From a virus: a stretch of 64,000 nt of DNA. The translations under genes were made by a program, and so were the position numbers. This document shows, in pieces, positions 1,193-63,012 of the stretch; within the stretch, counting starts at the first letter, position 1; every line of letters begins with the position of its first letter. The stretch lies in UHGV virus genome UHGV-0010228, one strand, 5' to 3'. Under the pieces are notes generated by a model. It saw only the letters and a program-made list of their open reading frames with translations. It had not been told where the DNA came from and did no database searches.

Positions 1193-1205
1193 TAAATAAT
1201 ATATT
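1193..1205 (-). promoter_or_regulatory. conserved promoter-like motif ATATATTATTTAA
   Basis: exact 13-mer on minus strand, 74 nt upstream of ATG 1119. Confidence 0.6.
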
Positions 1206-1207
1206 GG

Positions 1208-1516
1208 TTAAAAATCATACAATCTCGATAAATTATCAGTACTACGATATTCCATTCCAGTAATGCAATTCTTATAATATGTAAGAATATCATCAGCATT
1301 ATATCTACGTATTGTGTGCGATACTATCTTATCATTATCGCGTTTAATGCATAGTATTGGTCTATTCTGATCATCATATTCTCTTTCATATGCAATACCT
1401 GTAGAATTCCAATAGAATATTTCATTACCATTATCATCATATCGATATGATTCTGAAAATCCCTTACCATTTTCAAATTCAAGTATTCTTCCATGTTCAT
1501 CATATATTTTACCCAT
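1208..1516 (-). CDS. YD/RHS-repeat protein (short)
   Basis: repeats YDEHGRIL, YRYDDNGNEI, YEREYDDQNRPIL match YD-repeat consensus YDxxGR(L/I); RBS AGGAGG. Confidence 0.6.
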   Translation of the reverse strand: MGKIYDEHGRILEFENGKGFSESYRYDDNGNEIFYWNSTGIAYEREYDDQNRPILCIKRDNDKIVSHTIRRYNADDILTYYKNCITGMEYRSTDNLSRLYDF

Positions 1517-1543
1517 TTTTTTTTAACCTCCTACATAAAAAAT

Positions 1544-1574
1544 AAGTCTATACATTATAGAAATGTATAGACTT
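1544..1574. terminator. hairpin terminator (13-bp perfect arms)
   Basis: aagtctatacatt-ataga-aatgtatagactt downstream of 469-aa gene. Confidence 0.7.
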
Positions 1575-1595
1575 ATTTAATTTATTAAGACTTAT

Positions 1596-3005
1596 TTACT
1601 TAAAGAATAATTCTGAGAGTGAATCAGCTATATCATCCTGTAATGATCCTGTTGTAACATTATTCTTTAAAGCTGTACATATATTTTCAGCCGCTTTAAG
1701 AATATTATCATCTACTGTAACTGGACGAGCTGGACGCTTAGAGAATATTTCAACTCTACGTTCATTACCAATTGGTGGATACGTCTTGCGGATAGAGCTA
1801 TAATCACCAAAGTGATTAGTATTCGTTCTAACACCCGTAATATCACTTATTTCTTCACAATAAGATGTTGGCTTAAGATACTGCTTAATAGCATTCATAT
1901 CAACATCTTCTGATATAATTTCATCATAATGAGATATATCAATAATACCCTCATAGAACATATTAATCTTATTAGGAATCAATTCGTATTCCTCCTGATC
2001 AAATATTTCTTCAAGATATGCTTCAATTGACTCATCTGATATATTGCATGATAAATGAATTGTGAGATAATCAATCGTCATCTCTTTCTCAAATTTAATG
2101 AGCTTACCATTTCTGGTAGTATGCCAGATATAACCTCCATTATAATCTCTTCTACGAGTAATTATATTATCATCATCAGTAGTATCTGCCATATAAATGA
2201 GACTATGATTCTCGTCGTAAGCATTAATAAGGCATCTATGTGAATTAAATATGCCGTCGCTAGATACATTGCCATGATAAATATGCTCTAATTCATAGTC
2301 ATCTTTATCATAGAGATATTCATGAGTGTTAACAACTTTGCCATTTACGTAATATGTAATATTATACTTCTTGGCACCGTCATTAAGATATGATATTTCT
2401 TCTTCCTTTATGATATTATTATACTGCAGATATGCAGTATATATCAGACGATCATTATCGTCATATTTATATATTTCACTAGCACCTTTATTATTTTTAG
2501 TCATCAATAATCGATGCTTATTGTCATAATGATTTTCGATCAGTCTTACACTCGGAAAATCACCATCCTCTATACCATCATGGCAATCACTCCAATATCT
2601 TTCAATAATAGTTTCTTTAGTACCATTATGATTGATATATGTGTCACGCTGAAAAGTACTTTCATCAATAGCTGCATTATTCTCATCATTAGTTACTGAA
2701 ATCTTTCTATAGAATGAAGTACCGTAGTTATACGAGATAGTCTTCTCGTATGATTTTTCATTTTCTGAGTTAGTCTTATATGACTCAAATGAAAGATCGC
2801 CCTTCTCATTATAATTTCTTTTAAGGACTGATAATCCATCCGCATCATTTATAGTCCTAGAGAATAAACGAGGATTCATCTGATCTGGGTCAGATGCATC
2901 TTCAATATTAATGATCGTTTCTGTAATAGCATCATCCCCAGTAATTCTCATCAATTTCTCAACTGACTTTGCTTCTTCCATAAACTTTTCAAAATTAAAA
3001 CCCAT
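1596..3005 (-). CDS. YD/RHS-repeat protein
   Basis: multiple YD repeats (NYNEKGDL, HYDNKHRLL, YKYDDNDRLIY, YLYDKDDYELE, AYDENHSLIY, RDYNGGYIWH); RBS AAGGAGG. Confidence 0.65.
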   Translation of the reverse strand: MGFNFEKFMEEAKSVEKLMRITGDDAITETIINIEDASDPDQMNPRLFSRTINDADGLSVLKRNYNEKGDLSFESYKTNSENEKSYEKTISYNYGTSFYRKISVTNDENNAAIDESTFQRDTYINHNGTKETIIERYWSDCHDGIEDGDFPSVRLIENHYDNKHRLLMTKNNKGASEIYKYDDNDRLIYTAYLQYNNIIKEEEISYLNDGAKKYNITYYVNGKVVNTHEYLYDKDDYELEHIYHGNVSSDGIFNSHRCLINAYDENHSLIYMADTTDDDNIITRRRDYNGGYIWHTTRNGKLIKFEKEMTIDYLTIHLSCNISDESIEAYLEEIFDQEEYELIPNKINMFYEGIIDISHYDEIISEDVDMNAIKQYLKPTSYCEEISDITGVRTNTNHFGDYSSIRKTYPPIGNERRVEIFSKRPARPVTVDDNILKAAENICTALKNNVTTGSLQDDIADSLSELFFK

Positions 3006-3049
3006 AGTAAAATGTCCTCCTTTTAAATAGGTGAGCTATAAATTATCAT

Positions 3050-3062
3050 ATAAATAATATAT
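3050..3062 (-). promoter_or_regulatory. promoter-like motif ATATATTATTTAT
   Basis: 44 nt upstream of ATG 3005. Confidence 0.6.
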
Positions 3063-3077
3063 AGCTCTAAATAAAAC

Positions 3078-5735
3078 TTAATATAACCGATATATCGTTT
3101 GATTAGAATTCTTATCAATAACTTCTTCTGTTGTCATAATTATATTTACTGGATTTCCATCAAATGAATTATGATTATGAGTTATTAAGAATACTTGCTT
3201 AGCCTTAATATCATGTAATTGCTTATATAAAATATCAATAAAATGATCTTTATCTTTCTTATATAATGGACCATCCATTTCATCTAATAGCATTATATTA
3301 TAAGGTATTTCAACTTTCTGATTTAATTGGAATTGCCTTATCAATGCAAATGATAATGCGATACTAATAATAGCTTTTTGTCCCTGTGATGCAGATTCTA
3401 TATCATCTACTACTATATCATTAGATGCAAATGGAATCTTAAACTCATTTTCTGTGATTACAAAATCTAAAATTTCTAATCCATCATTAAATACATCAGA
3501 TATTAATTCATTAACAATTTCTCTGCAATTATCAAGAAATAATTTGATTAATACTAACGGAATTCCATCTTTAGCGGATGATGCTGCTAATATATCACGT
3601 AATAATTCTCGTTCTTCTAATGCTTCATCATACTCGTGTTGAGTATAATCAATATCCATTAAAAGATGAACTAACGATCTATGACGTTGCTCCTTTATAT
3701 CATATTCTAATTTAATATTATTAACTTCACGATATAAATCATTTACTTGGATAATATTATTCTTTGCAATTTCTAAATTTTTAGAAAGATTAACGATATT
3801 ATCAGATAATGTTTTATGCTGAACATCATATTCACGAATATCATTCTTAATAGAATCAATATTTAATGAGATCGTATATAATTCACTGGAACTTTCATAT
3901 TTTTTATTAATTTCAGTTCGTTCAGAATCTTTGACCTCTAACTGAGATATTAATGATCTATGTAAAGATTCACAATTTAAAATTTTCTCATCTATATTAC
4001 CTGAAGATTCCAATTGGCTCATTTCATATTTGATAGACTTTAATCTCTCAGAGAGATCATATAATGATTCTCTCATTTGACATAGCTCTAAAATATTGAT
4101 TAATTTAGAATGATCATACCAATTATAATTTGATCTATCAATAAGAATCATTTTTAGATTTTCTTGATTTAAAACTCCAAGGTCTTTTAGTGGAGTTTTA
4201 ATTGATTTCCACATTTCTTTTAATCCAATAATTCTCTTATATAAATATGGAAGATCTTGATATTTTGATATTTCAATATCAATAGAATCTATCTCATTTA
4301 AAATGCTATGTAATTCAGTATCATTCCTATTATTTTTATTTATATTAATTGGATGAGATATATAATATGGGCATGATTTAGTTGGACACAATGGTGCTCT
4401 ATACATTGGAATTGTGGGTGAATAAGTTTCTGAAAATTTTATATTATTTATTTGCTTCTGAAGATTTACCTTTCTACCAGTGAGCATAGATACTTTCTTA
4501 GATGCTACTGTAGATATTGTTGCATCTGAATTATATGCTGCAATTATCGATTCCTTAGAATACGACGTTATCTCATTAATTGAAGTTTTTATAATTTCAA
4601 GATCATCTATAAATTTAGCTAAATTTATATAACTATATGAGCATTTGAATCCTTTTAACTTGCGACTGTATTCATTATATTTAGTCTCAATATCTAAATA
4701 TTGTTGTTTTAATAAAGCTAAATGTGACTCTGATCCTGATATCTTTTTCATATCACGATATTTATTTAAATCAGCTTTATTATTCTTTATAGATTCTTCT
4801 AAATTCATTATTTCTTCATCAAGAGATTTTTTTCTATATAATAATACAGATATTTCATTACCTAGCTTTGTGCTATCTACACCATCGTATGCTTCTACTT
4901 TAGATCGGAGATTATCAATCTCTTTATTTAAATCTGATATCTGACCATTTAATATGCTCAATTGATCTTCAGTTTCTTCTATACTATGATTATTCAATAA
5001 GATATTATTAGCAGTTGATAGTTCTACGATCTTAGACTTAAGTGTAGAACTATCTTTCTCTAATTCAGATAATCGAGTTCCCAATTCATCTCGTTCCTGT
5101 ATCATTTCATCATATTTATCAGCAGATAATGACATAAGTTTATTTGTAAGCATTGTCATCTTAGCATTCATAGCTCTCATATCATCTGATACTTTCTTAT
5201 ATATATCAAGATATATATCTGCCTCCGGTAATTGCGCTGCTATATATGATTTCCTATCTGTAGATTTCATATTAATAAGATTTGTAACATTAGGTCCTAA
5301 TCTTAATAATCTTAAGAAATTTTGCTCTATACCCATCTCATCCTTTACGATCTCTTTAAAGGCTCCAGTATTACCATTAGGATTTAACTCAACACCATTT
5401 AATTTAATATATGATTTGGTATTATGAGTTTGACCATTTTTATTCCATGTATACTTATGCTGTATCGAATATACATCTTCGCCTCGGATGATATCAATCT
5501 CTTTAAGTCCATCCTTTTCTGGTAATATTTGCTTATCTTGATTTCTAGAATCCAATGAACCATACGTTGAGAATGGCTGTAAGTGTCCTAATATAGCCGT
5601 CTTACCAGATCCCATCTTTCCTATAAATATATTTATAGGATTATCATTATCAAAAATGATTTCTATCTCATTTTTATTCATTCCTGAATATATATGAGCA
5701 AAGTTCTTTAAATAAAGTCTATGTATTTTCCACAT
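3078..5735 (-). CDS. sbcC: SbcC/Rad50-like recombination ATPase
   Basis: N-terminal Walker A GKMGSGKT, long coiled-coil middle, C-terminal Walker B/D-loop LLDEMDG...ITHN; RBS AAGGAG. Confidence 0.85.
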   Translation of the reverse strand: MWKIHRLYLKNFAHIYSGMNKNEIEIIFDNDNPINIFIGKMGSGKTAILGHLQPFSTYGSLDSRNQDKQILPEKDGLKEIDIIRGEDVYSIQHKYTWNKNGQTHNTKSYIKLNGVELNPNGNTGAFKEIVKDEMGIEQNFLRLLRLGPNVTNLINMKSTDRKSYIAAQLPEADIYLDIYKKVSDDMRAMNAKMTMLTNKLMSLSADKYDEMIQERDELGTRLSELEKDSSTLKSKIVELSTANNILLNNHSIEETEDQLSILNGQISDLNKEIDNLRSKVEAYDGVDSTKLGNEISVLLYRKKSLDEEIMNLEESIKNNKADLNKYRDMKKISGSESHLALLKQQYLDIETKYNEYSRKLKGFKCSYSYINLAKFIDDLEIIKTSINEITSYSKESIIAAYNSDATISTVASKKVSMLTGRKVNLQKQINNIKFSETYSPTIPMYRAPLCPTKSCPYYISHPININKNNRNDTELHSILNEIDSIDIEISKYQDLPYLYKRIIGLKEMWKSIKTPLKDLGVLNQENLKMILIDRSNYNWYDHSKLINILELCQMRESLYDLSERLKSIKYEMSQLESSGNIDEKILNCESLHRSLISQLEVKDSERTEINKKYESSSELYTISLNIDSIKNDIREYDVQHKTLSDNIVNLSKNLEIAKNNIIQVNDLYREVNNIKLEYDIKEQRHRSLVHLLMDIDYTQHEYDEALEERELLRDILAASSAKDGIPLVLIKLFLDNCREIVNELISDVFNDGLEILDFVITENEFKIPFASNDIVVDDIESASQGQKAIISIALSFALIRQFQLNQKVEIPYNIMLLDEMDGPLYKKDKDHFIDILYKQLHDIKAKQVFLITHNHNSFDGNPVNIIMTTEEVIDKNSNQTIYRLY

Positions 5736-5755
5736 TATTCTTTTCTCCTTTTCAA

Positions 5756-5768
5756 AAGAATAATATAT
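5756..5768 (-). promoter_or_regulatory. promoter-like motif ATATATTATTC
   Basis: variant of conserved motif 24 nt upstream of sbcC ATG. Confidence 0.5.
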
Positions 5769-5834: not shown

Positions 5835-6275
5835 CTATTTATCTTTCTCTTTATCTGGATCGACAAAGTATTTTTTGGTAAGCTTTTCAATGAGCTTAGC
5901 CTGAATATCATTGCCAATATCACATAAAGCATCACTTGGTGGCACTGATGATGAGCATGATATTAATAATATTGGATTGTTATCATTTGGTTTTACTAGA
6001 GAGATATATACTTCACCAACTACAGCTTTTATACAATGCTCCTGAAATGAATATTTCAGATTATATTTCGCATCAATGATATATTTAATATCATCTATAT
6101 TAAAGCTTGTAGTTGTCCTTGATGGGAAATATATATCTGAATTAAACTTCCCAGTAGTATGCTTACTAATATTATCAGTAAGCATACGCTGCATTACAAT
6201 ATTAACCTCAGATGCAATCTTAATTATTTCTGAAGCATACAATATTATACCATTTTTTGCAATTTCTTTAGACAT
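5835..6275 (-). CDS. hypothetical protein
   Basis: 146-aa ORF, RBS AAGGAG, promoter motif upstream. Confidence 0.55.
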   Translation of the reverse strand: MSKEIAKNGIILYASEIIKIASEVNIVMQRMLTDNISKHTTGKFNSDIYFPSRTTTSFNIDDIKYIIDAKYNLKYSFQEHCIKAVVGEVYISLVKPNDNNPILLISCSSSVPPSDALCDIGNDIQAKLIEKLTKKYFVDPDKEKDK

Positions 6276-6317
6276 AGTTATTCTCCTTTATATCCTATGT
6301 AACTATAATTTATTCGT

Positions 6318-6330
6318 TTAAATAATATAT
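6318..6330 (-). promoter_or_regulatory. promoter-like motif ATATATTATTTAA
   Basis: 48 nt upstream of ATG 6275. Confidence 0.6.
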
Positions 6331-6647: not shown

Positions 6648-7388
6648 TTACCAATAATATATTGCATCAGTATCAAGATTATACCCTTCGTTATCCCAAG
6701 TTTCAAGAAGCTGCTTCTTTTCATCGTGAGCATTTTGCCATTCATCAATCTTTAATGATATTGTACCAACACCTACTTCTAACTGATCTTTTCTCTTTAA
6801 TTGATTATAAAGAAATTCTTCTAAGTCTAATACGGTCAATTGCCTTAAGTGAGTCATAGCTCTAGGTGGTATTGTTGATAATGATAAATCATGAGTTAAT
6901 GCTATTTCACATCTATAAATACCACCATTCCATCCATTAAATATTGCTAATTTATTAGGTGGAATAAATCTAAATGTTGGTGATTTCTGCATATTTCTAG
7001 ATAATGCTGATGCCATCTGAATATCCGCAACTGTTTCCATTATTACATCAGCACCACCTAATGCTAATGAAGGGAAGTATAAATCATCAGTTCCTCCGCC
7101 ATATGATCCAGCTTCAATATTAAGAACTCCTAATATTGTAGAATCTTGATATTCCTTATATGGAATTTCATAAGTAACTGATCTATCAAAATATCTCATA
7201 GAATCATCTACTATCATATTTGGAGTAATCTGTATCATCTTTATATATGGTGAACGTTGTGAAAATTCTTTTAATGCAGATTGCTGAAATCTCTGTATTA
7301 ATCTAGTATCATCTACCGGTAATGGGATATCTTTTATTCCCATGTCTTCCTTGCATAATGTTAAAAATTCCGAAAGGTTATAAAACAT
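6648..7388 (-). CDS. hypothetical protein
   Basis: 246-aa ORF with RBS GAAAGGAG. Confidence 0.55.
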   Translation of the reverse strand: MFYNLSEFLTLCKEDMGIKDIPLPVDDTRLIQRFQQSALKEFSQRSPYIKMIQITPNMIVDDSMRYFDRSVTYEIPYKEYQDSTILGVLNIEAGSYGGGTDDLYFPSLALGGADVIMETVADIQMASALSRNMQKSPTFRFIPPNKLAIFNGWNGGIYRCEIALTHDLSLSTIPPRAMTHLRQLTVLDLEEFLYNQLKRKDQLEVGVGTISLKIDEWQNAHDEKKQLLETWDNEGYNLDTDAIYYW

Positions 7389-7437
7389 ATATATCCATCT
7401 CCTTTCACAAGATTAACGAGTTGTTAAAAAAATAAAT

Positions 7438-8792: not shown

Positions 8793-8820
8793 GATTCTGT
8801 GTAAAATTTTACACAGAATC
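8793..8820. terminator. hairpin (11-bp arms) overlapping helicase stop
   Basis: gattctgtgta-aaattt-tacacagaatc. Confidence 0.55.
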
Positions 8821-10260: not shown

Positions 10261-10290
10261 AATATTTATTTTCCTTTCATAATAATCCAT

Positions 10291-10303
10291 CTAAATAATA
10301 TAT
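10291..10303 (-). promoter_or_regulatory. promoter-like motif ATATATTATTTAG
   Basis: 31 nt upstream of helicase ATG 10260. Confidence 0.6.
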
Positions 10304-10359
10304 CTTCTAATATAGATCAATCAAAAAACACAAACTTAAATGAGGGGAGGCGAATTTAA

Positions 10360-12510: not shown

Positions 12511-12555
12511 ATGTATTAACAGATCTTTATATTAAGAGGAGGACGATAGTCGTTT

Positions 12556-13080
12556 ATGAATTATTCGGTTATAAAAAAACATGATGTAGCAAATGGTCCT
12601 GGAGTTAGAGTTTCACTTTATGTGTCTGGATGTTCGCATCATTGTAAAAATTGTTTTAATCCTGAGACTTGGGATAAAAATTATGGTTCAATATTTACTT
12701 TAAAAGAAAGAATTGAAATAATTGATGCATTAAGACCTGATTATATTGAAGGTCTAACAATATTAGGCGGAGATCCAATTGAACCTTATAATATTTCTGA
12801 AGTTATTAAACTTATAAAGAGTGTAAAGGTTGTGTATCCAGATAAATCTATTTGGTTATATACTGGATATAAATTTGAAGATCTATTATCTGAGAAATTA
12901 ATCCCCGATCGTAGTATTAGAGATGATATTACAAGATATATTGATGTTATTGTAGATGGAGAGTTCGAAGAAGAAAATAAAGTTATTGATTTAAGATTTA
13001 GGGGATCTACAAATCAAAGAATCATCGATGTTAAAAAGAGTGTTAAAGAAGATTCCATTATATTATGGACAGATAAATAA
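12556..13080 (+). CDS. nrdG: anaerobic ribonucleotide reductase activating protein (radical SAM)
   Basis: N-terminal GPGVRVSLYVSGCSHHCKNC (CxxxCxxC cluster motif), size 174 aa; RBS AGGAGG. Confidence 0.85.
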   Translation: MNYSVIKKHDVANGPGVRVSLYVSGCSHHCKNCFNPETWDKNYGSIFTLKERIEIIDALRPDYIEGLTILGGDPIEPYNISEVIKLIKSVKVVYPDKSIWLYTGYKFEDLLSEKLIPDRSIRDDITRYIDVIVDGEFEEENKVIDLRFRGSTNQRIIDVKKSVKEDSIILWTDK

Positions 13081-14526: not shown

Positions 14527-14589
14527 ATAACTTTATAGATAAGTTAGATAAGGAATACTAAAAAACAAAATCGTAATTTTATAGAAAGG

Positions 14590-18065: not shown

Positions 18066-18316
18066 TTTTCTTTTTCCTCCCAGCAAATAATAACATCATC
18101 ACTTCTATCATCAGTATTATTAGTATACAATACAACATTATATTTACATTTATCTTTTAATGATAAATCCTCTATGGGATATACATTAACACAATCATAA
18201 AAAGCACCATTACCGGGAATATTTGGCTGATTATTATAATATTCCATTTCAACAGTATAAGTTAATTGTGAATACGATAAACTCGTAAACAGTGTAAATA
18301 ATAATAAAGTTTTCAT
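18062..18316 (-). CDS. small secreted protein (signal peptide)
   Basis: MKTLLLFTLFTSLSYSQ hydrophobic N-terminus; RBS GAGGA; stop overlaps RNAP gene ATG (ATGA). Confidence 0.45.
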   Translation of the reverse strand: MKTLLLFTLFTSLSYSQLTYTVEMEYYNNQPNIPGNGAFYDCVNVYPIEDLSLKDKCKYNVVLYTNNTDDRSDDVIICWEEKEK

Positions 18317-18341
18317 ATTATTGTCCTCAATTGTCATGATA

Positions 18342-18377
18342 AAAGCGATATACTATCAATTGATAGTATATCGCTTT
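18342..18377. terminator. 36-bp perfect palindrome terminator
   Basis: aaagcgatatactatcaa-ttgatagtatatcgcttt followed by T-rich tract. Confidence 0.7.
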
Positions 18378-18402
18378 GTTTTTGTTATTTTAAGATTCTA
18401 GG

Positions 18403-23288: not shown

Positions 23289-23308
23289 TTTATTTCCTCC
23301 TTTATCAT

Positions 23309-23321
23309 GTGAATAATATAT
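23309..23321 (-). promoter_or_regulatory. promoter-like motif ATATATTATTC
   Basis: 21 nt upstream of ATG 23288, immediately after ligase stop. Confidence 0.5.
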
Positions 23322-25897: not shown

Positions 25898-25930
25898 AGA
25901 GAAGAATTCATCATTATTGAATTCTTCTCT
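25898..25930. terminator. hairpin 13-bp perfect arms (contains EcoRI-like gaattc twice)
   Basis: agagaagaattca-tcattat-tgaattcttctct, between promoter motif and RBS. Confidence 0.55.
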
Positions 25931-25942
25931 TTAATAATATAT
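25930..25942 (-). promoter_or_regulatory. promoter-like motif ATATATTATTAAA
   Basis: 56 nt upstream of ATG 25877. Confidence 0.55.
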
Positions 25943-26542: not shown

Positions 26543-26595
26543 ATTCCGTCTCTTGACGTATCTCTTTTTTTCATGTTATCCACCTCCTGTTCACT

Positions 26596-26608
26596 TAAAT
26601 AATATATC
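26596..26608 (-). promoter_or_regulatory. promoter-like motif ATATATTATTTAA
   Basis: immediately after RNase H stop; 188 nt upstream of dut ATG with two hairpins between. Confidence 0.5.
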
Positions 26609-32717: not shown

Positions 32718-32740
32718 AATATTCATATCTCCTTTATCAA

Positions 32741-32753
32741 ATAAATAATATAT
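32741..32753 (-). promoter_or_regulatory. promoter-like motif ATATATTATTTAT
   Basis: about 28 nt upstream of sbcD ATG; divergent partner motif at 32790. Confidence 0.55.
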
Positions 32754-32789: not shown

Positions 32790-32802
32790 ATATATTATAT
32801 CG
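32790..32802 (+). promoter_or_regulatory. promoter-like motif ATATATTATATCG (plus-strand instance)
   Basis: 46 nt upstream of TTG 32845. Confidence 0.45.
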
Positions 32803-32844
32803 ATGAATACATATGTATAATTTAATGTTTGGAGGTTAGTTAAA

Positions 32845-33887: not shown

Positions 33888-33918
33888 AAAGAATAGTTCT
33901 GAAACTATTCTTTTTTTA
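33888..33918 (+). terminator. rho-independent terminator
   Basis: gaatagtt-ctgaa-aactattc followed by TTTTTTT. Confidence 0.7.
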
Positions 33919-33957
33919 ACAATTATGTAAATTCTAGAGAAAGCGAGGGATATATTT

Positions 33958-35400: not shown

Positions 35401-35446
35401 AGTAATATTCCTCCTATATTATTTATACTATGTACTATAATTTCAC

Positions 35447-35459
35447 TTTAATAATATAT
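35447..35459 (-). promoter_or_regulatory. promoter-like motif ATATATTATTAAA
   Basis: 49 nt upstream of ATG 35400. Confidence 0.6.
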
Positions 35460-36008: not shown

Positions 36009-36055
36009 AGTATTATTATTCCTCCTTATTATGTAAACTAGATGTATTTATTCAT

Positions 36056-36068
36056 TTTAATAATATAT
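36056..36068 (-). promoter_or_regulatory. promoter-like motif ATATATTATTAAA
   Basis: 42 nt upstream of ATG 36008. Confidence 0.6.
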
Positions 36069-36849: not shown

Positions 36850-36894
36850 AATAATTTATCCTCCTTATTATGTAAATTAAATGTATTTATTCAC

Positions 36895-36907
36895 CATAAT
36901 AATATAT
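36895..36907 (-). promoter_or_regulatory. promoter-like motif ATATATTATTATG
   Basis: 48 nt upstream of ATG 36849. Confidence 0.55.
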
Positions 36908-37840: not shown

Positions 37841-38156
37841 CTTTTATACCCTCGGTTTCCCGATATTTTAGTAGGGGAATAGACTATACAATACTATTTC
37901 TGATTATTTTTATGACAAAATCGACCTTTAGAATCTCGTGCCTTAAAACACAGAAATAGTTCTCTATTATAGTCGTTGAACGTCCATCCTATATTTCTAT
38001 AGATGTTTCGCTGCGTTTGATTACCCAATCCTTAATGATTTTACCATACCGATTCCGTTACTAATCGCCACTATCTATATCACTATGATAGCTTGGTTAT
38101 TAAGGCTCTAAGGGACTCCCCGCAGTTTAAGAGATTTAACGTGGACTATCTCGTTA
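37841..38156 (-). ncRNA. group I self-splicing intron (ORF-less, 316 nt) in nrdD
   Basis: P1: exon GUGGAU pairs intron GUCCAC with U.G at splice site; P10: exon-2 AUCUUG pairs CGAGAU; P element AACUGCGGGGAG, Q CGCAGCG, R GUUCAACGACUAUAA, S GUAUAGUCUAUUCC in canonical order; GNRA-loop hairpin UCGG-GAAA-CCGA; terminal G before exon 2. Confidence 0.75.
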
Positions 38157-40248: not shown

Positions 40249-40290
40249 TTTATTCTCCTTCCAAAAATGTTAAAATATCTTTATCATTTT

Positions 40291-40303
40291 TATAATATAT
40301 AAG
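40291..40303 (-). promoter_or_regulatory. promoter-like motif TATATATTATAAA
   Basis: 40 nt upstream of nrdD ATG 40248. Confidence 0.5.
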
Positions 40304-40439
40304 TTATAAAAAGGTTAATAATTAATACAAAAACAAGTTTTAGATACTTGTCGGTTAATAAATTTATTACAAATACTATTTATATACATATTCAACAACA
40401 CCGTAATTGCTTGATAATACTCGGAAAGGAAGTGATTTA

Positions 40440-43379: not shown

Positions 43380-43423
43380 AAACATCAACATAAGAAAATT
43401 GCAATAGAAAGGTGGCTAAAGTA

Positions 43424-56700: not shown

Positions 56701-59680
56701 CCAATTGTACTTTACGAGGATCATTTTCCATTTGATAAACTTTATTTCGTTTATCTTTTCTATGTCTATCAGTCCATGATAAATATTTAAGATAAGTTTC
56801 ATTATTTTGCCAATCCTCACCAAATAAGTAAGTCATGGTACCACGCTGAATCTTATCGTATCCTTTTCCTAATTCTTCTTTGGTCTTTTTCCAAAAAGAC
56901 TTTTTACCATCCTTAGCTTTCTTAACCTGATCTTTAAATATACCATCTTTTTCATCAAAGAAATATTTCTTTATCTTTTCTCTAAGTTTTTTAGATGGTT
57001 CACTATCCCAGAATTTTGATAATAATCCATTTTCACCAAATAATGAAGATGTGAAATTAGTAAAGCTTGCAGATAAATTAGAAATTGCTATTGTATTAGC
57101 ATTTGCATTCTGCATTAAAGCTTCTTCTGGGGTATTTGGTGTTGGAGCATCTTGTAATCTATTAACTAAATTATTTCTAAGAGCAGTATCCTGTGCAACC
57201 TTTCTCTGGTCTCTACCAAGAATATCTTTTGGATTTCCGGTAATGTCCATCTTTTCAACTTGTGCACGAATATCATCAGTATCATTACTATGCCTAGCTC
57301 TTCGATTACGCATTCTATTGCGTAATGCTGCTTTATTACCACTAAATTTTACAGACCGTTTAGTACCAACACTATATGTGTTATAATCCAGATCATCAAA
57401 ATCAAAATCATCGGCGCTTCTAACTGGTCTGTAATGTTTATAATCGAAATCATCTTCGAGATCTTTATTTATCCCATATACAGTTCTAAAAAGTCTATCA
57501 TCTACAGGATCTACAAATTTTGATCTAGCATATTTATTCATTCTCTTCTTGCGCATTGCTTCGGCACGTTTAGGAGAGAATTTTCCAACAATTTTTTCTC
57601 CAAGATGAGTATTCTTTACTATCCATTCTTGATAATATTTCTTAATTATTTTCTTACATTCAGTCTTTTGCTCATTGATAGATGTAGCTTTATCGGCTAC
57701 CTTTTGTATTTCTTTATAAAATCCAGGTTCTGATGCGATATCTTCAATAATATCATCAGTAATTCCCATTTCTCGCATATAGTTCAATATACGTTCATCA
57801 ATCAAGCTTGAATCCATAAAGGCATATTCAAAATGGTTAATATCGAACTTTCTTCTACCACGTTCATCAGTACGTTTAAACTTTATATTATTTCTTCTAT
57901 CATTCCAAGCAGTTTTTCCGTACTGATTATTAATGTTTCTAAATATTGAAGTATCTGATGATCCAATATCAAATAACTTCTCGTTCAATCCAGCAATTGA
58001 CTCATTTATATAATTATCATAATCCATTATAGCTTGCTTATATAGATTATAATTTTCTTTCTTAAGATATGAGATTGCCTTTGCGAACTCAATACGTGCT
58101 TGTTTATCATCTATATTATCAAATATTCTATCATTAGTAATTTCACTTACTCTAGATGAAACCTTTTTTCTTTGCTTCTTATCACCAACTCCATTTATTG
58201 CATCAGTAATAGATTCGGCCATATTATTAAGAGAATATTTAAGCTCATCATTGAAATCTTTTTCAATACGATCTTTAGTCTTGAACATTCCTGTTTCATA
58301 ATCATAGTATCTCTTATTACCTTTACTATATGAAACTCGATTAAATCCATTAGGATCAACATTGAGATTTGATTTGGATAATATCTTACTGATATTAGCA
58401 ATATTATTATCCATACTACTCAAATATTCAGGAATTACTTCAACTATAGCTCTTTGAGCATATCCATTCCATGGTAAAGCATCTTTTGTATATCCACTAA
58501 GGCTTAATCCTTTTAATTTATTTCGGTCATTACCAAAAATATCACTAATTCCTAATAATGACCATATCATCTGCCCACCAAAGCCTAAACCTTTTGGTGA
58601 ATAACTCCCAATTCTTTTCAATATCTCATCGGCATATTTGCCAATCTTTTCATCAAATTTCTTTAATGATTTTGGCATTGCCATACCAATGAATTTTTCT
58701 GCAATAAATCCTACAGGATCATTCTTTATTTTCTTTATGGTATCTCCTCCGCCCATTCCTTGACCAGGAAGCATGAGCTGAGCCATTGTACCTAATAATG
58801 AATTTCCAAAATTATTTTTAACGTATCCAAGATATTCTTTTACATTAAATCCACTAGAAGTGTCAAAGTTTTTGCTTGAAGGTTTATCTTTAGAATATTT
58901 ATATTTTGTCATATTTTCAAGCATATCGCCAATTCCACTCATCATATCATTTGCAGATGAGAAGAAATCGCCCATAGTTTCATATGCTTGAACTGTATTT
59001 GAATTATGAAATTCTAACAGTTTTTCAATATTATCATTTATTCTATCAACCTTATGATTTAAGGTCATAAGTGATGAATTCAACAAATTCGTTCCATATA
59101 GAACTGAATTTATTATAGCATCAGCATTAGCACTAGAAAGTTTTGCATTTGTCCTATTTATACTATTAGCTAAATGCTCCATTCCTTTTACTTGTGCCGA
59201 ACTTGATAGCACAATTGACTTCGCAACACCAGCAGATGCATTCATATACACTTCTGCGTTTTTTGAATTATTTGTACTATCAGAAAACTCATCATCATCT
59301 AAAGCAAAATCATCATTTAAATCAAAATCTCCCATTATATCATTTTCAAATGAATCATATAATTCATCTGATACAATATTTGAGAAGACTCCCGAATTTA
59401 ATTGCTCTTTTGCTCTATTAAAAGTATCTCGAGCAGCTTTAGCGAGTTTATTTTTACCCATCTCTCTCTGCTCTTGGGTCTGCACATTCTTAAATTTTCT
59501 TGATGTATTTCTTATCTCCTTATTAATTTCTGAAATACCTTGTGCAGTATTATATGTTGATGGTAATACTTCTTTAGCAGTTATCTTAAAAGCATTACCA
59601 ACTGACGATCCAGCATTTCTTACCCAAGATTTTTTCTTAGATCTCGAACTGCTAGATCTAGATTTTATAGTTCTAGCCAA
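47717..59680 (-). CDS. giant (3987-aa) tape-measure-like / ejection protein with peptidoglycan hydrolase domains
   Basis: uninterrupted 11.96-kb ORF; Gly/Ala-rich hydrophobic segments with threefold (E/K)SFQSxxFGE repeat; papain-like Cys peptidase (NGGCGPTSLAMI...GHIVVASG); glucosaminidase/FlgJ-like (AQAIQETSLGS...NNMFGVMP); C-terminal M23 peptidase (HNGIDFAAPAGTPIY...GNHLHYGV); TTG start with RBS AAAGGTGG. Confidence 0.8.
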   Translation of the reverse strand: MARTIKSRSSSSRSKKKSWVRNAGSSVGNAFKITAKEVLPSTYNTAQGISEINKEIRNTSRKFKNVQTQEQREMGKNKLAKAARDTFNRAKEQLNSGVFSNIVSDELYDSFENDIMGDFDLNDDFALDDDEFSDSTNNSKNAEVYMNASAGVAKSIVLSSSAQVKGMEHLANSINRTNAKLSSANADAIINSVLYGTNLLNSSLMTLNHKVDRINDNIEKLLEFHNSNTVQAYETMGDFFSSANDMMSGIGDMLENMTKYKYSKDKPSSKNFDTSSGFNVKEYLGYVKNNFGNSLLGTMAQLMLPGQGMGGGDTIKKIKNDPVGFIAEKFIGMAMPKSLKKFDEKIGKYADEILKRIGSYSPKGLGFGGQMIWSLLGISDIFGNDRNKLKGLSLSGYTKDALPWNGYAQRAIVEVIPEYLSSMDNNIANISKILSKSNLNVDPNGFNRVSYSKGNKRYYDYETGMFKTKDRIEKDFNDELKYSLNNMAESITDAINGVGDKKQRKKVSSRVSEITNDRIFDNIDDKQARIEFAKAISYLKKENYNLYKQAIMDYDNYINESIAGLNEKLFDIGSSDTSIFRNINNQYGKTAWNDRRNNIKFKRTDERGRRKFDINHFEYAFMDSSLIDERILNYMREMGITDDIIEDIASEPGFYKEIQKVADKATSINEQKTECKKIIKKYYQEWIVKNTHLGEKIVGKFSPKRAEAMRKKRMNKYARSKFVDPVDDRLFRTVYGINKDLEDDFDYKHYRPVRSADDFDFDDLDYNTYSVGTKRSVKFSGNKAALRNRMRNRRARHSNDTDDIRAQVEKMDITGNPKDILGRDQRKVAQDTALRNNLVNRLQDAPTPNTPEEALMQNANANTIAISNLSASFTNFTSSLFGENGLLSKFWDSEPSKKLREKIKKYFFDEKDGIFKDQVKKAKDGKKSFWKKTKEELGKGYDKIQRGTMTYLFGEDWQNNETYLKYLSWTDRHRKDKRNKVYQMENDPRKVQLAEGVTKESLKRKLRKPGDRKSTVNITSNLTDDVEDKKYINATETKLLEGPKRNYKRFTGKKLIGAKKRFTVGVDNSADMIESAKDQFALTIYNGAEKIEDAAEDVAEDIKGSNDSTKKKKVTQNIFEKFKESAKKIAPKAAAAAIAGGIFGLLATRQNLGLTGLAFLPHTVLGGAIAAAGLSILSHTEAFQSVMFGKMDDNGERHGGIFTKKMQASFKKALPFAIGGATLGVIKSIVLPSTVSQFGAGGVLTSALLPSGVIGGALLGAALGILKNNESFQSMLFGEKGADGKRSGTWLSNHWNKSKERLGKLFPMIGKGIKGFAIGALTATTMSHMGFIPAALSAGGPIGMGIAGMVIGMSSASKKFNEYLFGTEQVDENGNVIGRKTNGLLRRMANVMKVTIIDNIIGPAKEHVMGTLNTIRKNITIPFRKAFGPIVDSIKEVKDNIVDNIKAVIEKIGDGAKTIIEGALHRIFGPVASLTKLITKAVTKTASLGIYGAVAPVSIGLRGLELLTRGKRKDAMGDYRKEYRRNIATMLMGKWRTEREAGNSRTGLGKAVDIFQAIRGKGDIARAAKEGWADQMSDLGRNAFDWMTADNDLDDLNAKAKAAKKENKMWKKVNKIRENITIKDLGGREVDLTDEQVKRYREMFRKAGMKDDKYLNRLQTSDDIMDLLYRRGEWSKAVKNGTLEEQIMRDGVKVQESPEEKAARERTMRYQTAVEDYLQSIRDFFAGKALNSHLKINEFTSEADRTEYADRILKKLKRHGIDTSGMGIEDIGNLSADILDDDLFNEYRESGYFATGNFRDFVKQRKRKDENEKKRFRYNSKKNQFEADKNKYEAMREEYVRKYGDIRRKATRMNVGFNDDAMYSRVGINKDIFLDKLIKAAYAGDVDLSGFTFGGRTSEDASNASVIENLKRVKKSGKIDKGLGPEGINGLADFVESKIKDNDDAKSSYLQKIIDLFRETNELAGLNHKLQEEQINLAKENENLQKEANKINQDIADAAAVDVEINTDGDITGDDVRKKRKSTSKGNPLKRFGKRIMDKYKITENENVQNMKNNIKSFFALNRKDEDTEEVRKGATSVATIGATSAAKTNEEEEKPTENDTSIIRKALGKILGVSGSVLGAVGNTLPAKLVVAGVKKIIPAYTVAGITIGIAEIIRPGFQARLEAKTQEFSNFIERGAIWDQYVLPTLEHGLTSIGNGINKFSENFPMYWNQYIFPSITKVFENIGKNAHYIADVIKVMFNTLAEPMMNAFISVIPTIAGSVLKALWNVTVGKLVPGWKFKTDTTEVYTLSTAHMSKEQRASMIQGLQANGNNVIDVDEDGTISYTRDQDAIGIDEDGNATYAEHTDAQRIGLNGFVRGAINAARGGRTGKLLYKGAGAVLGATVGGAFGLMPGGISPVTGALYGGARGAALGDAAIKATSSVARSVAGSSINTIVSSTGLRSGRASDIGARVLQNGALNNISDKTLDEVNKVLVSNIDDKQAYDILKGISAESAAGNVKSGAGAMVAKGLSVHKAPEELLEEVLKYLPVEERLGVLEKYASESVSKSIVDIARRNIIKDTALDLGFTMSKSEAGAIAEATAKAAAGEATTDFEKDILKKSTQSVVETGASDAVKESRKGLIRKAFGLVEKGISAIAKNKVVLKVLGKIMKDKSGQKTVIAKTISAISSWLKDKLTFILSEDRIYMKYATLLGTQIAKAGITTSPIGILFGVYDLATGFFEAANLFKVNANDVDLLMRFISSVMKCLMGISVGIVIDLTLEVVGAFKGCDLKCEFASFLYDKLSGLFNDQFALNLDEAQKRFEEEAAQYNAENGDDLTLDEYSDTIANRSVIKRVWSVIRHPIISMNKALGYGKPAGAYSGYTMTDYNDDYITNDVSGGTIRSGASTNTSNNRNKSSNINNAGFGRGPVGFGYGQALSQKNAQWSSIPLGTLPNGQPSTMANGGCGPTSLAMIANDINGKMISPGDIGKMAAANGYITQGGANAALFTKGAAEMGLKPHQVTRGSELYTNIKSGVPTIVAGRGDHTNDPFTSAGHIVVASGMDSNGNIIIKDPMDGKTKSYSASSVINNATGGWSYGYGNINIPDMYKTKKTAYDIPFGYGLISSTLNKLSNKSKLVKDITTAKKNEAKTTTNYNPPAPSKLYNAANKTKLTSRDIENKYLADPYKFCAIKKSIPPVPEQTKDLAGIGNTALYSLILSYKKSDFKLYDKYIVEGYKKYEALSWRKKVNTYGDNIFRTRYIYEYVYKKWKSSTGSNDTTITKIDYFNKSTDVCNVATIGKKNVPVSKITDAELRRLVDTVMQSADRDKYYTLRDYWRYVEIPINKKYNKYSIVIKDGETETGTNVTYKSKSVIKQHERTRLSYIYVNWGLSSSKIKDMQERVDNSEYYVNGVDMSSIAATDESLASGLLEHTREGVMNFLGSLKGENLFTKLKRLAGAISSYMTAYVNGTDPWEAIASELESDVSSDYETAEDGKTLGSTGIVDFNGSSITIPAELNVSGRQWAKKSLSERLNILAKFAQDNARSTSLPPSLTLAQAIQETSLGSAGGALSSNNMFGVMPKGKLAKYNTIGDSVVRYWDVLSGKLYSGARTATTAYDAMHAVANAGYCTSTYDYPNNIPMAKIDYENKLKRLYVNYNLGQYDSVGGKNIYGWGDIDLPIGYGNSTWGEMISGYAEGVGNAMKASKMGDLWDWINSKYSSGKSSNTNTTSKSSSSSLSGSSVGSSVNVVGNNAKEAIQKTLKYTRISSPFGYRSDPQSGKRKMHNGIDFAAPAGTPIYTPVSGTVTRSESPGSTGGFGNLVVVTDSKGTQHYFAHQSKRLVSKGARVAKGAKVGLVGSTGKSTGNHLHYGVKKNGSWINPASYSLVGLGPDYNKKLNIANVNMAKRYNINPDAPYFGGNSENGGFINKNTFINANNDGVESRLDTIANTIDKWYGDSKNSSPTNITNSGNTTIIGGNKTNNISTGSRAKSAKSLKNPNLNSMYNKIATL

Positions 59681-59767
59681 ATTAAATTCACCACCTTTCA
59701 GCTATAGATTAAATTTAGCCTAAACTTTTATCGGTCTGTTTTTATAGGTTAATTTAGGGAATTAAAT

Positions 59768-60321: not shown

Positions 60322-60335
60322 CGGAATATATTCCG
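60322..60335. terminator. short palindrome cggaatat-atattccg
   Basis: 4 nt downstream of stop of 185-aa gene, T-run follows. Confidence 0.45.
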
Positions 60336-60338
60336 ATT

Positions 60339-60896
60339 TTATCTATCACCATATTTTTTATAAAATTCATCCACATTATCTTGATAATATCTAGTTATAT
60401 TATTTATCATTGTGGTAATATCTAAATATACAAACTCTCCCCTGTCGTTAGTAAATAAATAAGCAATATCTTGATCTCCAATCCAATAATATACAATCTG
60501 TCCACCGAGTTTTATTTTGAAAAAATCATTATTGTAAGTTTTAGAATATTCCTTAAATTTTTTATTATCTGGATCTACATCATTAACTGATATTTCAGTT
60601 TCATCATCAGGTCCAAAAATCTTTCGAAATTCTTTTAAAAATAATGCTTTGTTATATTTAATTTTATTCGGATAGCATAATTCGATATAAAGATTTAAAA
60701 AGTTAGTGATATAATTTAAATCTTCATATTTATCTCCTTCTATTACTCCATTAATTTGAGGATCATTGTATACAACTCTTGAAATTTTTCGCATGAGTAC
60801 ATTCTGAGCTTTCTTTTGACTTCTTGCTTCTTTTTTAACAGCTCTTATATCTTTTAATTTAGAAATTAATCCTTCCATTACTATTATATCATTCAT
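60339..60896 (-). CDS. hypothetical protein
   Basis: 185-aa ORF, RBS AAGGAGG, duplicated promoter cassette upstream. Confidence 0.5.
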   Translation of the reverse strand: MNDIIVMEGLISKLKDIRAVKKEARSQKKAQNVLMRKISRVVYNDPQINGVIEGDKYEDLNYITNFLNLYIELCYPNKIKYNKALFLKEFRKIFGPDDETEISVNDVDPDNKKFKEYSKTYNNDFFKIKLGGQIVYYWIGDQDIAYLFTNDRGEFVYLDITTMINNITRYYQDNVDEFYKKYGDR

Positions 60897-60960
60897 ATAT
60901 AATACCTCCTTATATTATATAGTATTAATATAATGTATAATAAAAAAAAACAAGTGAATG
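60897..60960 (-). promoter_or_regulatory. duplicated promoter/5'UTR cassette copy A (sigmaA-like TTGTTT-N15/16-TATATT, T-tract UP element)
   Basis: about 65 bp near-identical to 62502-62566; upstream 26-bp palindrome gtgaatgactaat-attagtcattcac (60951-60976). Confidence 0.5.
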
Positions 60961-61009
60961 ACTAATATTAGTCATTCACTATTATTAACTATATTGATTA
61001 TAATTCATT

Positions 61010-61420
61010 ATATACCACAACTACCACTCCGTAGAATATACACACTTTGTCTCGCGATCATGCAACATGTTAACCATGACCTAACACCCCGTCGCCACCG
61101 TTTGCTTCTTCGGATCTTCAAGCTTTCGAAAACCCGCTTAAAATATACTACCCGCCACGTTACACGGTTTGCTATCTACATCGGCTCTTTCGAATGCAGA
61201 ATGCTCAAATGTTGAAACTTTAAATATCACTTAAGGACATTTATCATTACAACGCAATCATAGCATTAAATGTGCAGATTTAGATAGCAACAAATAATGC
61301 AATCATGTTTCGAGTATATTCTAAACGGGGAGGTTCTCTAATTGCACCGCCACGCCCAGTGAGGATGTTAGTCACCTACAGCAGTAATTGCGTAGAGCTA
61401 TATAACATCGTTAATTATAA
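61010..61420. other. GC-rich ORF-free island within about 940-bp non-coding region (candidate structured RNA / cis element)
   Basis: local GC far above flanks, no ORF with RBS, only an 85-aa spurious ORF. Confidence 0.3.
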
Positions 61421-61901
61421 CCTAGTTATTTATTATCTTTAGTATATTATATAAAAGATTAGCTTCTTATTGTATCTAATCTATCTAGTAGAGTATTTAT
61501 TACCATCTACTAAATCTAGTCTATATAATATAAAATTCTTATATTATAATCATATTATAAACTATCATATTGTAAAGTGTCCTGATAATATTAATTGACA
61601 CGAATGTGAAGCCTATGTATATACTTCGAATTACAACAATATCGTTTTTAGATATCTTATTGACTAGCTATTAGTATTATTATGAACTATATAGCAATTC
61701 TTATCATATAATATCAATAAGAGATAGCGCGATTAAAAAATAAAAATAATCAATCAAAAAAGAATATCGCTAAATATAATATAACTATATTATAGAATTA
61801 TTCGTCACATAATTAATTTTAAATCCCATTTAAAATTAATTTCTATAATTATGTTATATCAATATAAAAAAATAAAATCAAAAACCATTTTGTTATTATT
61901 A

Positions 61902-62501
61902 TCAAATCATGCCCATCATCATCAGATTATTCTGCTGCAGCATTTGTTGCTGTTGCATCATATCAATATGTTGTTGTTGCATTTGTTGCTGTTGCATCTG
62001 AGCAAATAATAATGCAAGCGATTGACGATCCTTTGGTGACATATGAGTATTAATTCTATCTATCAATTCTTTTCGTGTCACACATCTTAATTCATCATAA
62101 ATGAAAAAATAGAATTTAGTCGTACCGATAATTGATTTAAATTCCATAACAGCAAATTTGACGCCATGAGTTTTAGTATTGATATATGTAATTTTAGTTT
62201 TAATTTTTGCATTATCATACTCTATTTTTTTAGTATATTTCCTCTCTTTAGCTTGCACTATTAATAATTCTTTAAACAATGCATCATCTTCCATCGCATG
62301 TTTAAGTGCTATCTCAAGACCTCCATTAAATTCTCTAGATCCATCATCAAATGTGTTACAATATAATCTAACCAATTCAGTATCTGATGCTTTTTCTAAT
62401 TTTTTCGGAAGGTTCCTTATAGCATTAAATATCTTTCCTTCATATGCATAATCATTATCTATTACATTATATGATTCTAATGTATTATATAAATCAAACA
62501 T
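61902..62501 (-). CDS. hypothetical protein with Q/M-rich C-terminal tail
   Basis: 199-aa ORF ending QQQQMQQQHIDMMQQQQMLQQNNLMMMGMI; RBS AAGGAGG. Confidence 0.5.
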   Translation of the reverse strand: MFDLYNTLESYNVIDNDYAYEGKIFNAIRNLPKKLEKASDTELVRLYCNTFDDGSREFNGGLEIALKHAMEDDALFKELLIVQAKERKYTKKIEYDNAKIKTKITYINTKTHGVKFAVMEFKSIIGTTKFYFFIYDELRCVTRKELIDRINTHMSPKDRQSLALLFAQMQQQQMQQQHIDMMQQQQMLQQNNLMMMGMI

Positions 62502-62566
62502 TATAATACCTCCTTATATTATATATAATATTAATATAATGTATAATAAAAAAAAAACAAGTGAAT
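62502..62566 (-). promoter_or_regulatory. duplicated promoter/5'UTR cassette copy B
   Basis: near-identical to 60897-60960. Confidence 0.5.
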
Positions 62567-62584
62567 GAATCACATGATACAGTG

Positions 62585-62656
62585 GATCTATACAAATCAA
62601 CATTATAATGAGTCGGCCCCGACTATTCATATAATATTAATATTGTATAGATCCTA
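62585..62656. other. 72-nt stem-loop: 12-bp perfect outer stem enclosing GC hairpin agtcgg-cc-ccgact
   Basis: ggatctatacaa...ttgtatagatcc. Confidence 0.4.
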
Positions 62657-62900
62657 GTATCATAGCACAATCTGCAGAATAGCAGAAGGTTGATAGTCTT
62701 CCTTTCCTTTCTATAATATCTACTTTCACATGATACTATCATGTTACGTTAGAATGATATTTCATTCAAGTGATCAATATTTTAGATTTTGTCTATCCTT
62801 TATATTTTTAATACTTTGACAAATTGAGGAAATTTATATAGTTTTATAACACCACCCTACAAGTTACCGCTAACCCAGTAACCCCGATGTTAATATGCTA

Positions 62901-62971
62901 GCTAGGATAAATCATCTTACATGCAATGCAACACGAGAATGTAGTAATGCAGCAAGATAATTTATCCTAGC
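62901..62971. other. 71-nt long-stem hairpin (12-bp perfect + extended imperfect stem)
   Basis: gctaggataaat...atttatcctagc. Confidence 0.4.
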
Positions 62972-62985
62972 CTATATAAGTTCAC

Positions 62986-62998
62986 TTTAATAATATAT
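62986..62998 (-). promoter_or_regulatory. promoter-like motif ATATATTATTAAA with no protein gene for about 490 nt downstream
   Basis: exact motif; downstream minus-strand region contains the two long hairpins. Confidence 0.5.
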
Positions 62999-63012
62999 AA
63001 GTATAATTTTAA

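Follow-up and report, generated by a model that had tools for sequence, protein, structure and literature searches.

Putative AR9-type early promoters in a 64-kb stretch of an uncultivated human-gut jumbo phage

Genome context and relationships

The stretch of DNA analyzed here comprises 64,000 nucleotides (nt) of the virus genome UHGV-0010228 and is hereafter called the window. It carries 15 copies of a short motif, ATATATTAT-(6N)-G, ahead of genes, and these copies are probably the early promoters of a jumbo phage with RNA polymerases (RNAPs) of its own. Judged by its proteins, the source is an uncultivated jumbo phage of the human gut and a distant relative of Bacillus phage AR9, with which it shares 24-35% protein identity.

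No match was returned by a near-identity DNA search of 50,697 phage records and, because there was no near DNA match, the phage was placed through protein similarity alone. Its proteins matched those of AR9/PBS1, Staphylococcus jumbo phages, Listeria phage LPJP1 and Yersinia phage phiR1-37 at 23-30% identity. AR9 orthologues were determined by local tblastn against 250 kb of AR9, and family assignments were made with Pfam, PHROGs and NCBIfam (Table 1), by which several genes of the window fall in "virion structural protein" families. Synteny with AR9 is kept around sbcD-dnaB-recD and around the tape-measure gene. Identical proteins were found on human-gut metagenome contigs, Hadza samples included, the same NrdD being present on contigs of 0.2-1 Mb, and an anaerobic host is suggested because of the NrdD/NrdG pair together with the gut source.

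Homologues of AR9 g105, g154 and g264 bear out the split multisubunit RNAP that an earlier sequence-only reading of the window had recognized. A further RNAP subunit with an Rpb2 domain is encoded just outside the window, on a contig of the same phage (L130) that extends about 10 kb past its right end. By homology, two multisubunit RNAPs, one virion and one non-virion, would be encoded, of which the 64 kb shows part of the subunits. The product of the 469-aa gene 1596-3005, for which there was no family match, was considered as a counterpart of the AR9 promoter-specificity subunit gp226, being of similar size and an early gene, but this gained no support from BLASTP (E=0.58); neither tblastn nor BLASTP detected a homologue of gp226 in the window.

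Identification of putative early promoters

A total of 53 genes were called, leaving an intergenic remainder of 5,315 nt (8.3% of the window). The early unit was defined by aligning the intergenic copies of the motif as ATATATTAT-(6N)-G, and was found 15 times against 2.6 expected, a count that none of 100 dinucleotide shuffles reached. These matches are exactly the 15 sites listed in the sequence-only reading and no others: all of the listed sites exist, 14 on the minus strand and one on the plus strand (32790), and the coordinates, which mark the low end of a 13-mer, were right within 1 nt. The enrichment and strand bias asked about there were also seen within the window. All 15 sites are intergenic (mean in shuffled intergenic DNA 0.4, with none of 2000 shuffles reaching 15), and every one has the orientation of the gene that follows. 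For 13 of them the distance to the start codon, which has a strong ribosome-binding site, is 17-69 nt; the claimed short distance does not apply to the sites at 26592-26607 and 62983-62998.

Shorter and longer versions of the motif gave the same picture. The decamer ATATATTATT had 18 exact matches against 5.1 expected (maximum of 10 in 100 dinucleotide shuffles). The 13-mer ATATATTATTWWR, in which form the motif had been written down earlier, matched 10 times (1.2 expected from dinucleotide shuffles); it is enriched as such and recovers nine of the listed sites, the tenth match (52294, +) being inside the giant gene. In an unbiased k-mer count ATATATTAT was the most abundant strongly enriched intergenic 9-mer after the ribosome-binding site: the 5.3 kb of intergenic DNA contain 15 copies, the 58.7 kb of coding sequence nine. 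Where the core or the 10-mer occurs inside genes or at gene ends, the N6-G is missing, and the number of such copies fits the background expectation.

A position matrix of the 15 sites showed that the nine core positions and the G six nt beyond the core are invariant. The tenth position, which had also been thought invariant, is T in 13 sites and A in the other two (32790 and 40291). T(-1) is present in 13 of the sites and A(+2) in 14, and 13 also have an A four nt ahead of the core. The "GTG/ATG" noted earlier behind the motif corresponds to T(-1) and G(+1), that is, to the predicted transcription start and not to a start codon. Apart from the one A, no position upstream of the core exceeds 0.5 bit, and no -35 element was found at the 15 sites. 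TATAG occurs at about +6 to +13 in four of the sites (3062, 6330, 35459 and 62998); it could act as a leader element or as a downstream part of the promoter, or be a chance occurrence in AT-rich DNA.

The genes behind the motif encode SbcC, SbcD, the SF2 helicase, NrdD, a PD-(D/E)XK nuclease, a GNAT/ligase pair and the products of the small-gene cassettes. The labels given to sbcC, sbcD, nrdD, the SF2 helicase and the small cassettes in the sequence-only reading were right, and two of its other targets need revision: a mini-ORF (open reading frame) intervenes before dut, which is 181 nt away from its site, and the supposed "GC-rich gene" is a 482-nt non-coding leader. Assignment of the sites to an early/middle class draws on gene content and orthology, and would hold to that extent.

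Table 1. Putative promoters and principal genes of the window, with AR9 homologues and family assignments
Feature	Position	Strand	Downstream gene, homologue or family	Remark
Putative early promoter	1189..1204	-	209-aa gene 490-1119	ATATATTAT-TTAAGT-G; predicted +1 = G at 1189
Putative early promoter	3047..3062	-	469-aa gene 1596-3005	
Putative early promoter	5753..5768	-	SbcC-like ATPase 3078-5735 (AR9 g139 homologue)	right after terminator hairpin
Putative early promoter	6315..6330	-	146-aa gene 5835-6275	
Putative early promoter	10288..10303	-	SF2 helicase 8809-10260 (AR9 g156 homologue)	
Putative early promoter	23306..23321	-	22542-23288	same-strand gene run reaches non-virion RNAP beta-N 20280-21986
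Putative early promoter	25927..25942	-	GNAT-like gene 25299-25862 and NAD-dependent ligase 23324-25327	
Putative early promoter	26592..26607	-	18-aa mini-ORF 26518-26574, then dUTPase gene 25964-26410	two hairpins between mini-ORF and dUTPase gene
Putative early promoter	32738..32753	-	SbcD-like phosphoesterase 31560-32717 (AR9 g002 homologue), then DnaB-like helicase	
Putative early promoter	32790..32805	+	PD-(D/E)XK nuclease 32845-33510	divergent; 10th base A
Putative early promoter	35444..35459	-	small gene 35008-35400	right after terminator hairpin 35512-35477
Putative early promoter	36053..36068	-	small gene 35532-36008	right after terminator hairpin 36113-36079
Putative early promoter	36892..36907	-	36121-36849	after terminator-like hairpin
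Putative early promoter	40285..40300	-	nrdD 38146-40248	10th base A
Putative early promoter	62983..62998	-	gene 61902-62501	482-nt structured non-coding leader 62502-62983
Late-type motif	7414..7425	-	virion structural protein 6648-7388	25 nt upstream
Late-type motif	10327..10338	+	716-aa gene 10360-12510	21 nt upstream
Late-type motif	12518..12529	+	nrdG 12556-13080	26 nt upstream
Late-type motif	14564..14575	+	virion-RNAP subunit gene 14602-15810	26 nt upstream
Late-type motif	18369..18380	-	18062-18316 and non-virion RNAP beta'-C 16050-18065	upstream of both
Late-type motif	33918..33929	+	virion protein 33958-34959	28 nt upstream
Late-type motif	40394..40405	+	40440-43379	34 nt upstream
Late-type motif	43381..43392	+	43424-45085	31 nt upstream
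Late-type motif	59729..59740	-	3987-aa gene 47717-59680	48 nt upstream
Gene	3078-5735		AR9 SbcC g139	
Gene	8809-10260		AR9 SF2 helicase g156	
Gene	12556-13080		NrdG	Pfam/PHROGs/NCBIfam
Gene	13112-13654		DHFR	Pfam/PHROGs/NCBIfam
Gene	13666-14496		thymidylate synthase (ThyA)	above NCBIfam TIGR03284 cut-off
Gene	14602-15810	+	AR9 virion RNAP subunit g264	31% identity, E=1e-56; PHROG "RNA polymerase beta subunit"
Gene	16050-18065	-	AR9 non-virion RNAP beta'-C g154	E=1e-50
Gene	18403-19302		amidase	Pfam/PHROGs/NCBIfam
Gene	19369-20274		Tmk-like kinase	Pfam/PHROGs/NCBIfam
Gene	20280-21986	-	AR9 non-virion RNAP beta-N g105	E=8e-39
Gene	23324-25327		AR9 NAD-dependent ligase g095	
Gene	25964-26410		dUTPase	Pfam/PHROGs/NCBIfam
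Gene	27112-28308		AR9 RecD-like helicase g016	
Gene	29277-30971		AR9 DnaB g007	
Gene	31560-32717		AR9 SbcD g002	
Gene	33958-34959		AR9 virion protein g281	
Gene	38146-40248		NrdD	Pfam/PHROGs/NCBIfam
Gene	40440-43379		AR9 g212	
Gene	45491-46114		AR9 RusA g208	
Gene	46118-47635		AR9 virion protein g205	
Gene	47717-59680		AR9 tape-measure protein g204	3987 aa; giant gene

Comparison with the early promoters of AR9 and phiKZ-like phages

The early promoter of AR9 is AAATATATATTAT-(6N)-G(+1), of which 41 were mapped by differential RNA-seq (dRNA-seq) and primer extension (Lavysh et al., mBio 2017, PMC5312081). These promoters are active 5 minutes post infection and in the presence of chloramphenicol, and were hence assigned to the injected virion RNAP (PMC5312081). 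The early promoters annotated in the AR9 record were extracted, and the matrices were compared position by position with the 15 sites of the window. Common to both are the 9-nt core ATATATTAT, the 6-nt spacer, T(-1), G(+1) and A(+2), as well as the A four nt upstream of the core, which equals the first A of the AAAT found in AR9. As a positive control, the strict pattern ATATATTAT-(6N)-G was run on 250 kb of AR9 and gave 32 matches, in 27 of which the G is a mapped early start. The density of early promoters is also alike (15 per 64 kb in the window and 41 per 251 kb in AR9), as are the classes of downstream genes, the position upstream of sbcD and the pairing with a late motif, AACA-(6N)-TA.

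The two phages differ in that the AAAT prefix is mostly lost in the window, where instead a T follows the core in most sites, and in that the window phage comes from human-gut metagenomes and its putative promoters are known here from sequence, whereas those of AR9 were mapped on transcripts. About 10 AR9 early promoters (L001-L005) carry CCGTATTAAAA, or a variant of it differing by one or two bases, some 10-15 nt upstream of the AAAT-core (PMC5312081 Table S2); no counterpart of this element was visible in the window. An unexplained motif in early 5' untranslated regions was reported for AR9 itself (PMC5312081).

The early promoters of phiKZ-like phages are of similar appearance, having the sequence TATATTAC in phiKZ, TATATTAC...GTG in 201phi2-1 and KATATTATYWAAGTG in OBP and N1M2 (PMC7058600 Table 2). 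The promoters predicted for N1M2 (KATATTATYWAAGTGWA) and OBP (KATATTATYWWADTG) (PMC7058600) are almost identical to the consensus of the window, ATATATTATTWAARTGAA. Likeness to this group lies in an AT-rich element of about 10 nt centered near -10, TATATTA(T/C), with the start 6 nt downstream (PMC7058600; PMC7598289). The differences are that phiKZ-like phages have Gram-negative hosts, form a phage nucleus in many cases and use other late promoters (TATG in phiKZ); the late motif of the window is of the AR9 type and not of the phiKZ type. The core of the general type, (A)TATATTAT, takes the form ATATATTAT at all 15 sites, identical to the core of AR9. The phiKZ consensus given in the sequence-only reading, TATATTAC, agrees with the literature; on sequence comparison, the closest comparator, and the closest experimentally characterized match, is AR9 rather than phiKZ.

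According to a review, a motif of this kind can be found bioinformatically in every jumbo phage that encodes RNAPs (PMC7598289). The kind of element is thus already known, having been experimentally characterized in AR9, phiKZ and phiR1-37, and what was found here is a new instance in a gut phage.

Polymerase recognizing the early sites

Taken together with the homologues of AR9 RNAP subunits, the identity with the AR9 early promoter supports the earlier suggestion of a promoter for a phage-encoded or phage-modified RNAP. The 15 sites are most probably the early promoters of an AR9-like jumbo phage and would be read by an injected multisubunit virion RNAP, an explanation to which a probability of roughly 0.85 is given. 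The core would then lie at about -15 to -7, separated by six A/T-rich nt, the last of them T(-1), from the invariant G(+1) as the start of transcription, and the resulting transcripts would have 5' leaders of 18-70 nt with a strong Shine-Dalgarno sequence. As in AR9 and phiKZ, the enzyme injected with the DNA would read these sites without a host sigma factor and would turn on the genes for replication, recombination and nucleotide metabolism, small takeover genes and the non-virion RNAP. The latter enzyme would then read AACA-(6N)-TA ahead of virion genes.

The sigma-70 promoter consists of a -35 element, TTGACA, located 16-18 nt upstream of a -10 element, TATAAT. Host sigma-A (sigma-70 type) promoters with a -10-like TATATT or TATTAT, read by host RNAP as in phage SPO1, would share with the sites of the window an A/T-rich, TATAAT-like element about 10 nt upstream of the start. 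The core matches TATAAT at five of six positions, the predicted start falls 7-8 nt after the hexamer, and in five of the 15 sites a TG precedes TATATT by one nt, as in extended -10 promoters. However, the sites are without a -35 element, and nine invariant positions with a G at a fixed distance are unlike sigma-A -10 boxes; the enzyme reading the sites is expected to have no sigma homologue. Sigma-70-like sites are not enriched in the 22-41 kb region (140 against 152 expected). The identical motif of AR9 is active without new protein synthesis (PMC5312081), and infection by AR9-type phages is resistant to rifampicin (PMC13282480). Recognition by host sigma-A is consequently considered very improbable.

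Putative late promoters

The late promoters of AR9, which are read by its non-virion RNAP, have the sequence AACA-(6N)-T(A/G)+1, with AACA at -11 to -8 and TA or TG at -1/+1 (PMC5312081). Over the whole window AACA-(6N)-TA is depleted, with 44 copies against 73.9 +/- 7.7 expected (all 100 shuffles gave at least 44), whereas in intergenic DNA it is enriched, with 17 copies against 5.9 expected and none of 2000 shuffles reaching 17. Depletion window-wide together with intergenic enrichment would fit selection against spurious late promoters. Of the intergenic copies, nine have a gene start 21-52 nt downstream (Table 1). Late promoters were mapped in AR9 for the orthologues g264, g281, g204 and g205, and g212 is expressed late (PMC5312081 Tables S3, S4).

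No virion gene of the window carries the early motif. Its absence upstream of 40440, 43424, the giant gene and the amidase (the endolysin of the sequence-only reading), which had been pointed out before, was borne out by the scan of the window. Structural genes without the early motif carry the putative AR9 late motif, as would be expected of a two-polymerase programme.

The division into two motifs also bears on the possibility that the early sites are read by another phage enzyme or factor, for example as a middle class served by the non-virion RNAP with a separate specificity subunit. The assignment of the polymerase is made by analogy, nrdD and the small cassettes could be middle genes, and the non-virion RNAP of phiKZ serves two promoter classes. 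Against this, the motif is identical to that of the AR9 virion-RNAP class and to no non-virion RNAP motif, and a separate motif of the AR9 non-virion type, AACA-(6N)-TA, is already present in the window. Furthermore, the early motif precedes the operon with the non-virion RNAP beta-N gene, which is needed before that enzyme exists. Such an arrangement is regarded as improbable.

Transcription units and terminators

Terminator-like hairpins are abundant in the 22-41 kb region, where 22 were found against 5.0 expected. Hairpins stand directly upstream of the motif copies at 5768, 35459, 36068 and 36907, and terminator-promoter modules separate the small-gene cassettes. One divergent gene pair has one early copy per direction (32738 and 32790).

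This arrangement is relevant to a third alternative, in which the motif would be no promoter at all but would bind a phage regulator or a nucleoid protein, or serve as a signal for the RNA processing that generates the 5' ends. In AR9, treatment with terminator exonuclease failed to enrich many of the early 5' ends (PMC5312081), a result that by itself leaves processing formally conceivable. Location right after terminators and 17-69 nt before start codons, always on the gene strand, and the single copy for each direction between divergent genes speak for promoters instead. In addition, phiKZ early sites of the same type were recovered by ONT-cappable-seq, which is designed for primary 5' ends. 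A non-promoter function is therefore hardly plausible.

Copies outside the window

Three more copies of ATATATTAT-(6N)-G were found in L130. Each lies between genes and in the orientation of the downstream gene, with 40-92 nt to the start codon. L130 also has one copy of AACA-(6N)-TA 24 nt upstream of a 1051-aa gene. For relatives, IMG/VR was scanned for the 18-mer, and the matches listed were mostly single chance matches in unrelated AT-rich contigs. Comparison was made with those loci whose products include homologues of window proteins (L102, L090, L093, L097 and the L049 group) and with L033. Among the matches listed, every ATATATTAT-(6N)-R copy in these relatives is intergenic, including about 15 that were not selected by the search, and all copies with a called same-strand gene close downstream point at it. 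The order promoter-sbcD-dnaB-recD is found in L102, as in the window and in AR9. Three further loci (L007-L009), related via a 979-aa protein, were rejected as comparators, being too distant (33% identity, and 41% GC in one group) and containing mostly late genes.

Several points weigh against the early promoter interpretation. The relatives were found by the motif itself, and one copy per contig is present by construction. The AAAT of AR9 is reduced to a single conserved A in the window. Start site, timing and polymerase are carried over from AR9 and phiKZ, across homology of 24-35% protein identity, and would hold as far as that analogy does; packaging of the g264 homologue in the virion is likewise assumed. 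The gene of the non-virion RNAP beta'-C subunit, 16050-18065, has no early motif of its own, whereas its AR9 orthologue g154 does. Two terminator-like hairpins and a late-type motif whose predicted start is at the foot of a hairpin precede this gene (16050-18402, -), and its early expression would need read-through. Finally, the ThyA/DHFR and RecD-like helicase units of the window carry neither motif, and host RNAP or promoters of a third class may be involved as well.

As virion RNAP promoters, the sites, together with the late-type motifs and terminators, give a map of the transcription units and mark this as a phage whose transcription is carried out by two multisubunit RNAPs of its own. 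The AR9 early core, unchanged at 24-35% protein identity and in the anaerobic human gut, indicates that recognition by the virion RNAP is strongly constrained. In practical terms little is gained, since the motif class was previously described.

DNA composition and the late motif

The phage probably has thymine DNA, because ThyA, DHFR, dUTPase and a Tmk-like kinase are encoded, along with NrdD/NrdG; AR9 and PBS1, in contrast, have uracil DNA. The AR9 non-virion RNAP recognizes its late promoter only with deoxyuridine at template-strand positions -11/-10. With thymine DNA and yet both AR9 promoter classes kept, it is conceivable, at somewhat below even odds, that neither phage polymerase needs uracil for promoter reading here. 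If so, the phage would be a natural variant from which to learn how the specificity subunit of the non-virion RNAP distinguishes U from T, and few cis-elements would be as well conserved as the early core among RNAP-encoding jumbo phages, whether their hosts are Gram-positive or Gram-negative.

Non-coding leaders and the nrdD intron

Two of the early leaders contain hairpins near the start. The site at 1204 has a 69-nt leader with a hairpin (about 1140-1175, -) beginning some 20 nt into it; for the 209-aa protein encoded behind it (490-1119) no exact record was found in a look-up. At the 25942 site a hairpin (25930-25898, -) begins at about +1 and is followed by a T-rich run. These hairpins could be 5' stabilizers, attenuators, or terminators of the upstream gene placed past the promoter. 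The mini-ORF 26518-26574 (-) encodes the 18 aa MKKRDTSRDGMSVIVIVD behind a strong AGGAGG ribosome-binding site, and may specify a leader peptide or micro-protein.

Near its 3' end, nrdD is apparently interrupted by a group I intron (37773-38157, -). At gathering thresholds, no Rfam family was matched in the whole window; below threshold, Intron_gpI was found at 37860-38192 (-) over the full model length (26.2 bits, E=1e-4). The nrdD ORF stops directly after ...RRTCG, and joining T at 38157 to 37840 restores CGYLGSNFWNEGKTKEINSRVLHL*, a canonical NrdD C-terminus past the glycyl-radical motif. The predicted intron (38156..37841, 316 nt) is preceded by U and ends in G, and would account for the 404-nt gap after nrdD.

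The 482-nt leader or non-coding RNA 62502-62983 (-) is GC-richer than its surroundings and very strongly structured, with a minimum free energy of -139 kcal/mol (z = -7.2 versus shuffles), and ends in a hairpin and T10 run near 62560. It belongs to no Rfam family, and at E-value thresholds gave only chance-level microRNA and snoRNA matches. A second long non-coding gap, 60897-61901 (1005 nt), ends with the same hairpin, T-run and conserved block, TTATTATACATTATATTAATAYTATATAATATAAGGAGG, as are found in 62502-62560. The genes that follow these two modules, 61902-62501 and 60339-60896, were compared and are not paralogues. Strain contigs from different gut samples (L130-L133) vary in the cassettes present around 60897-62560.

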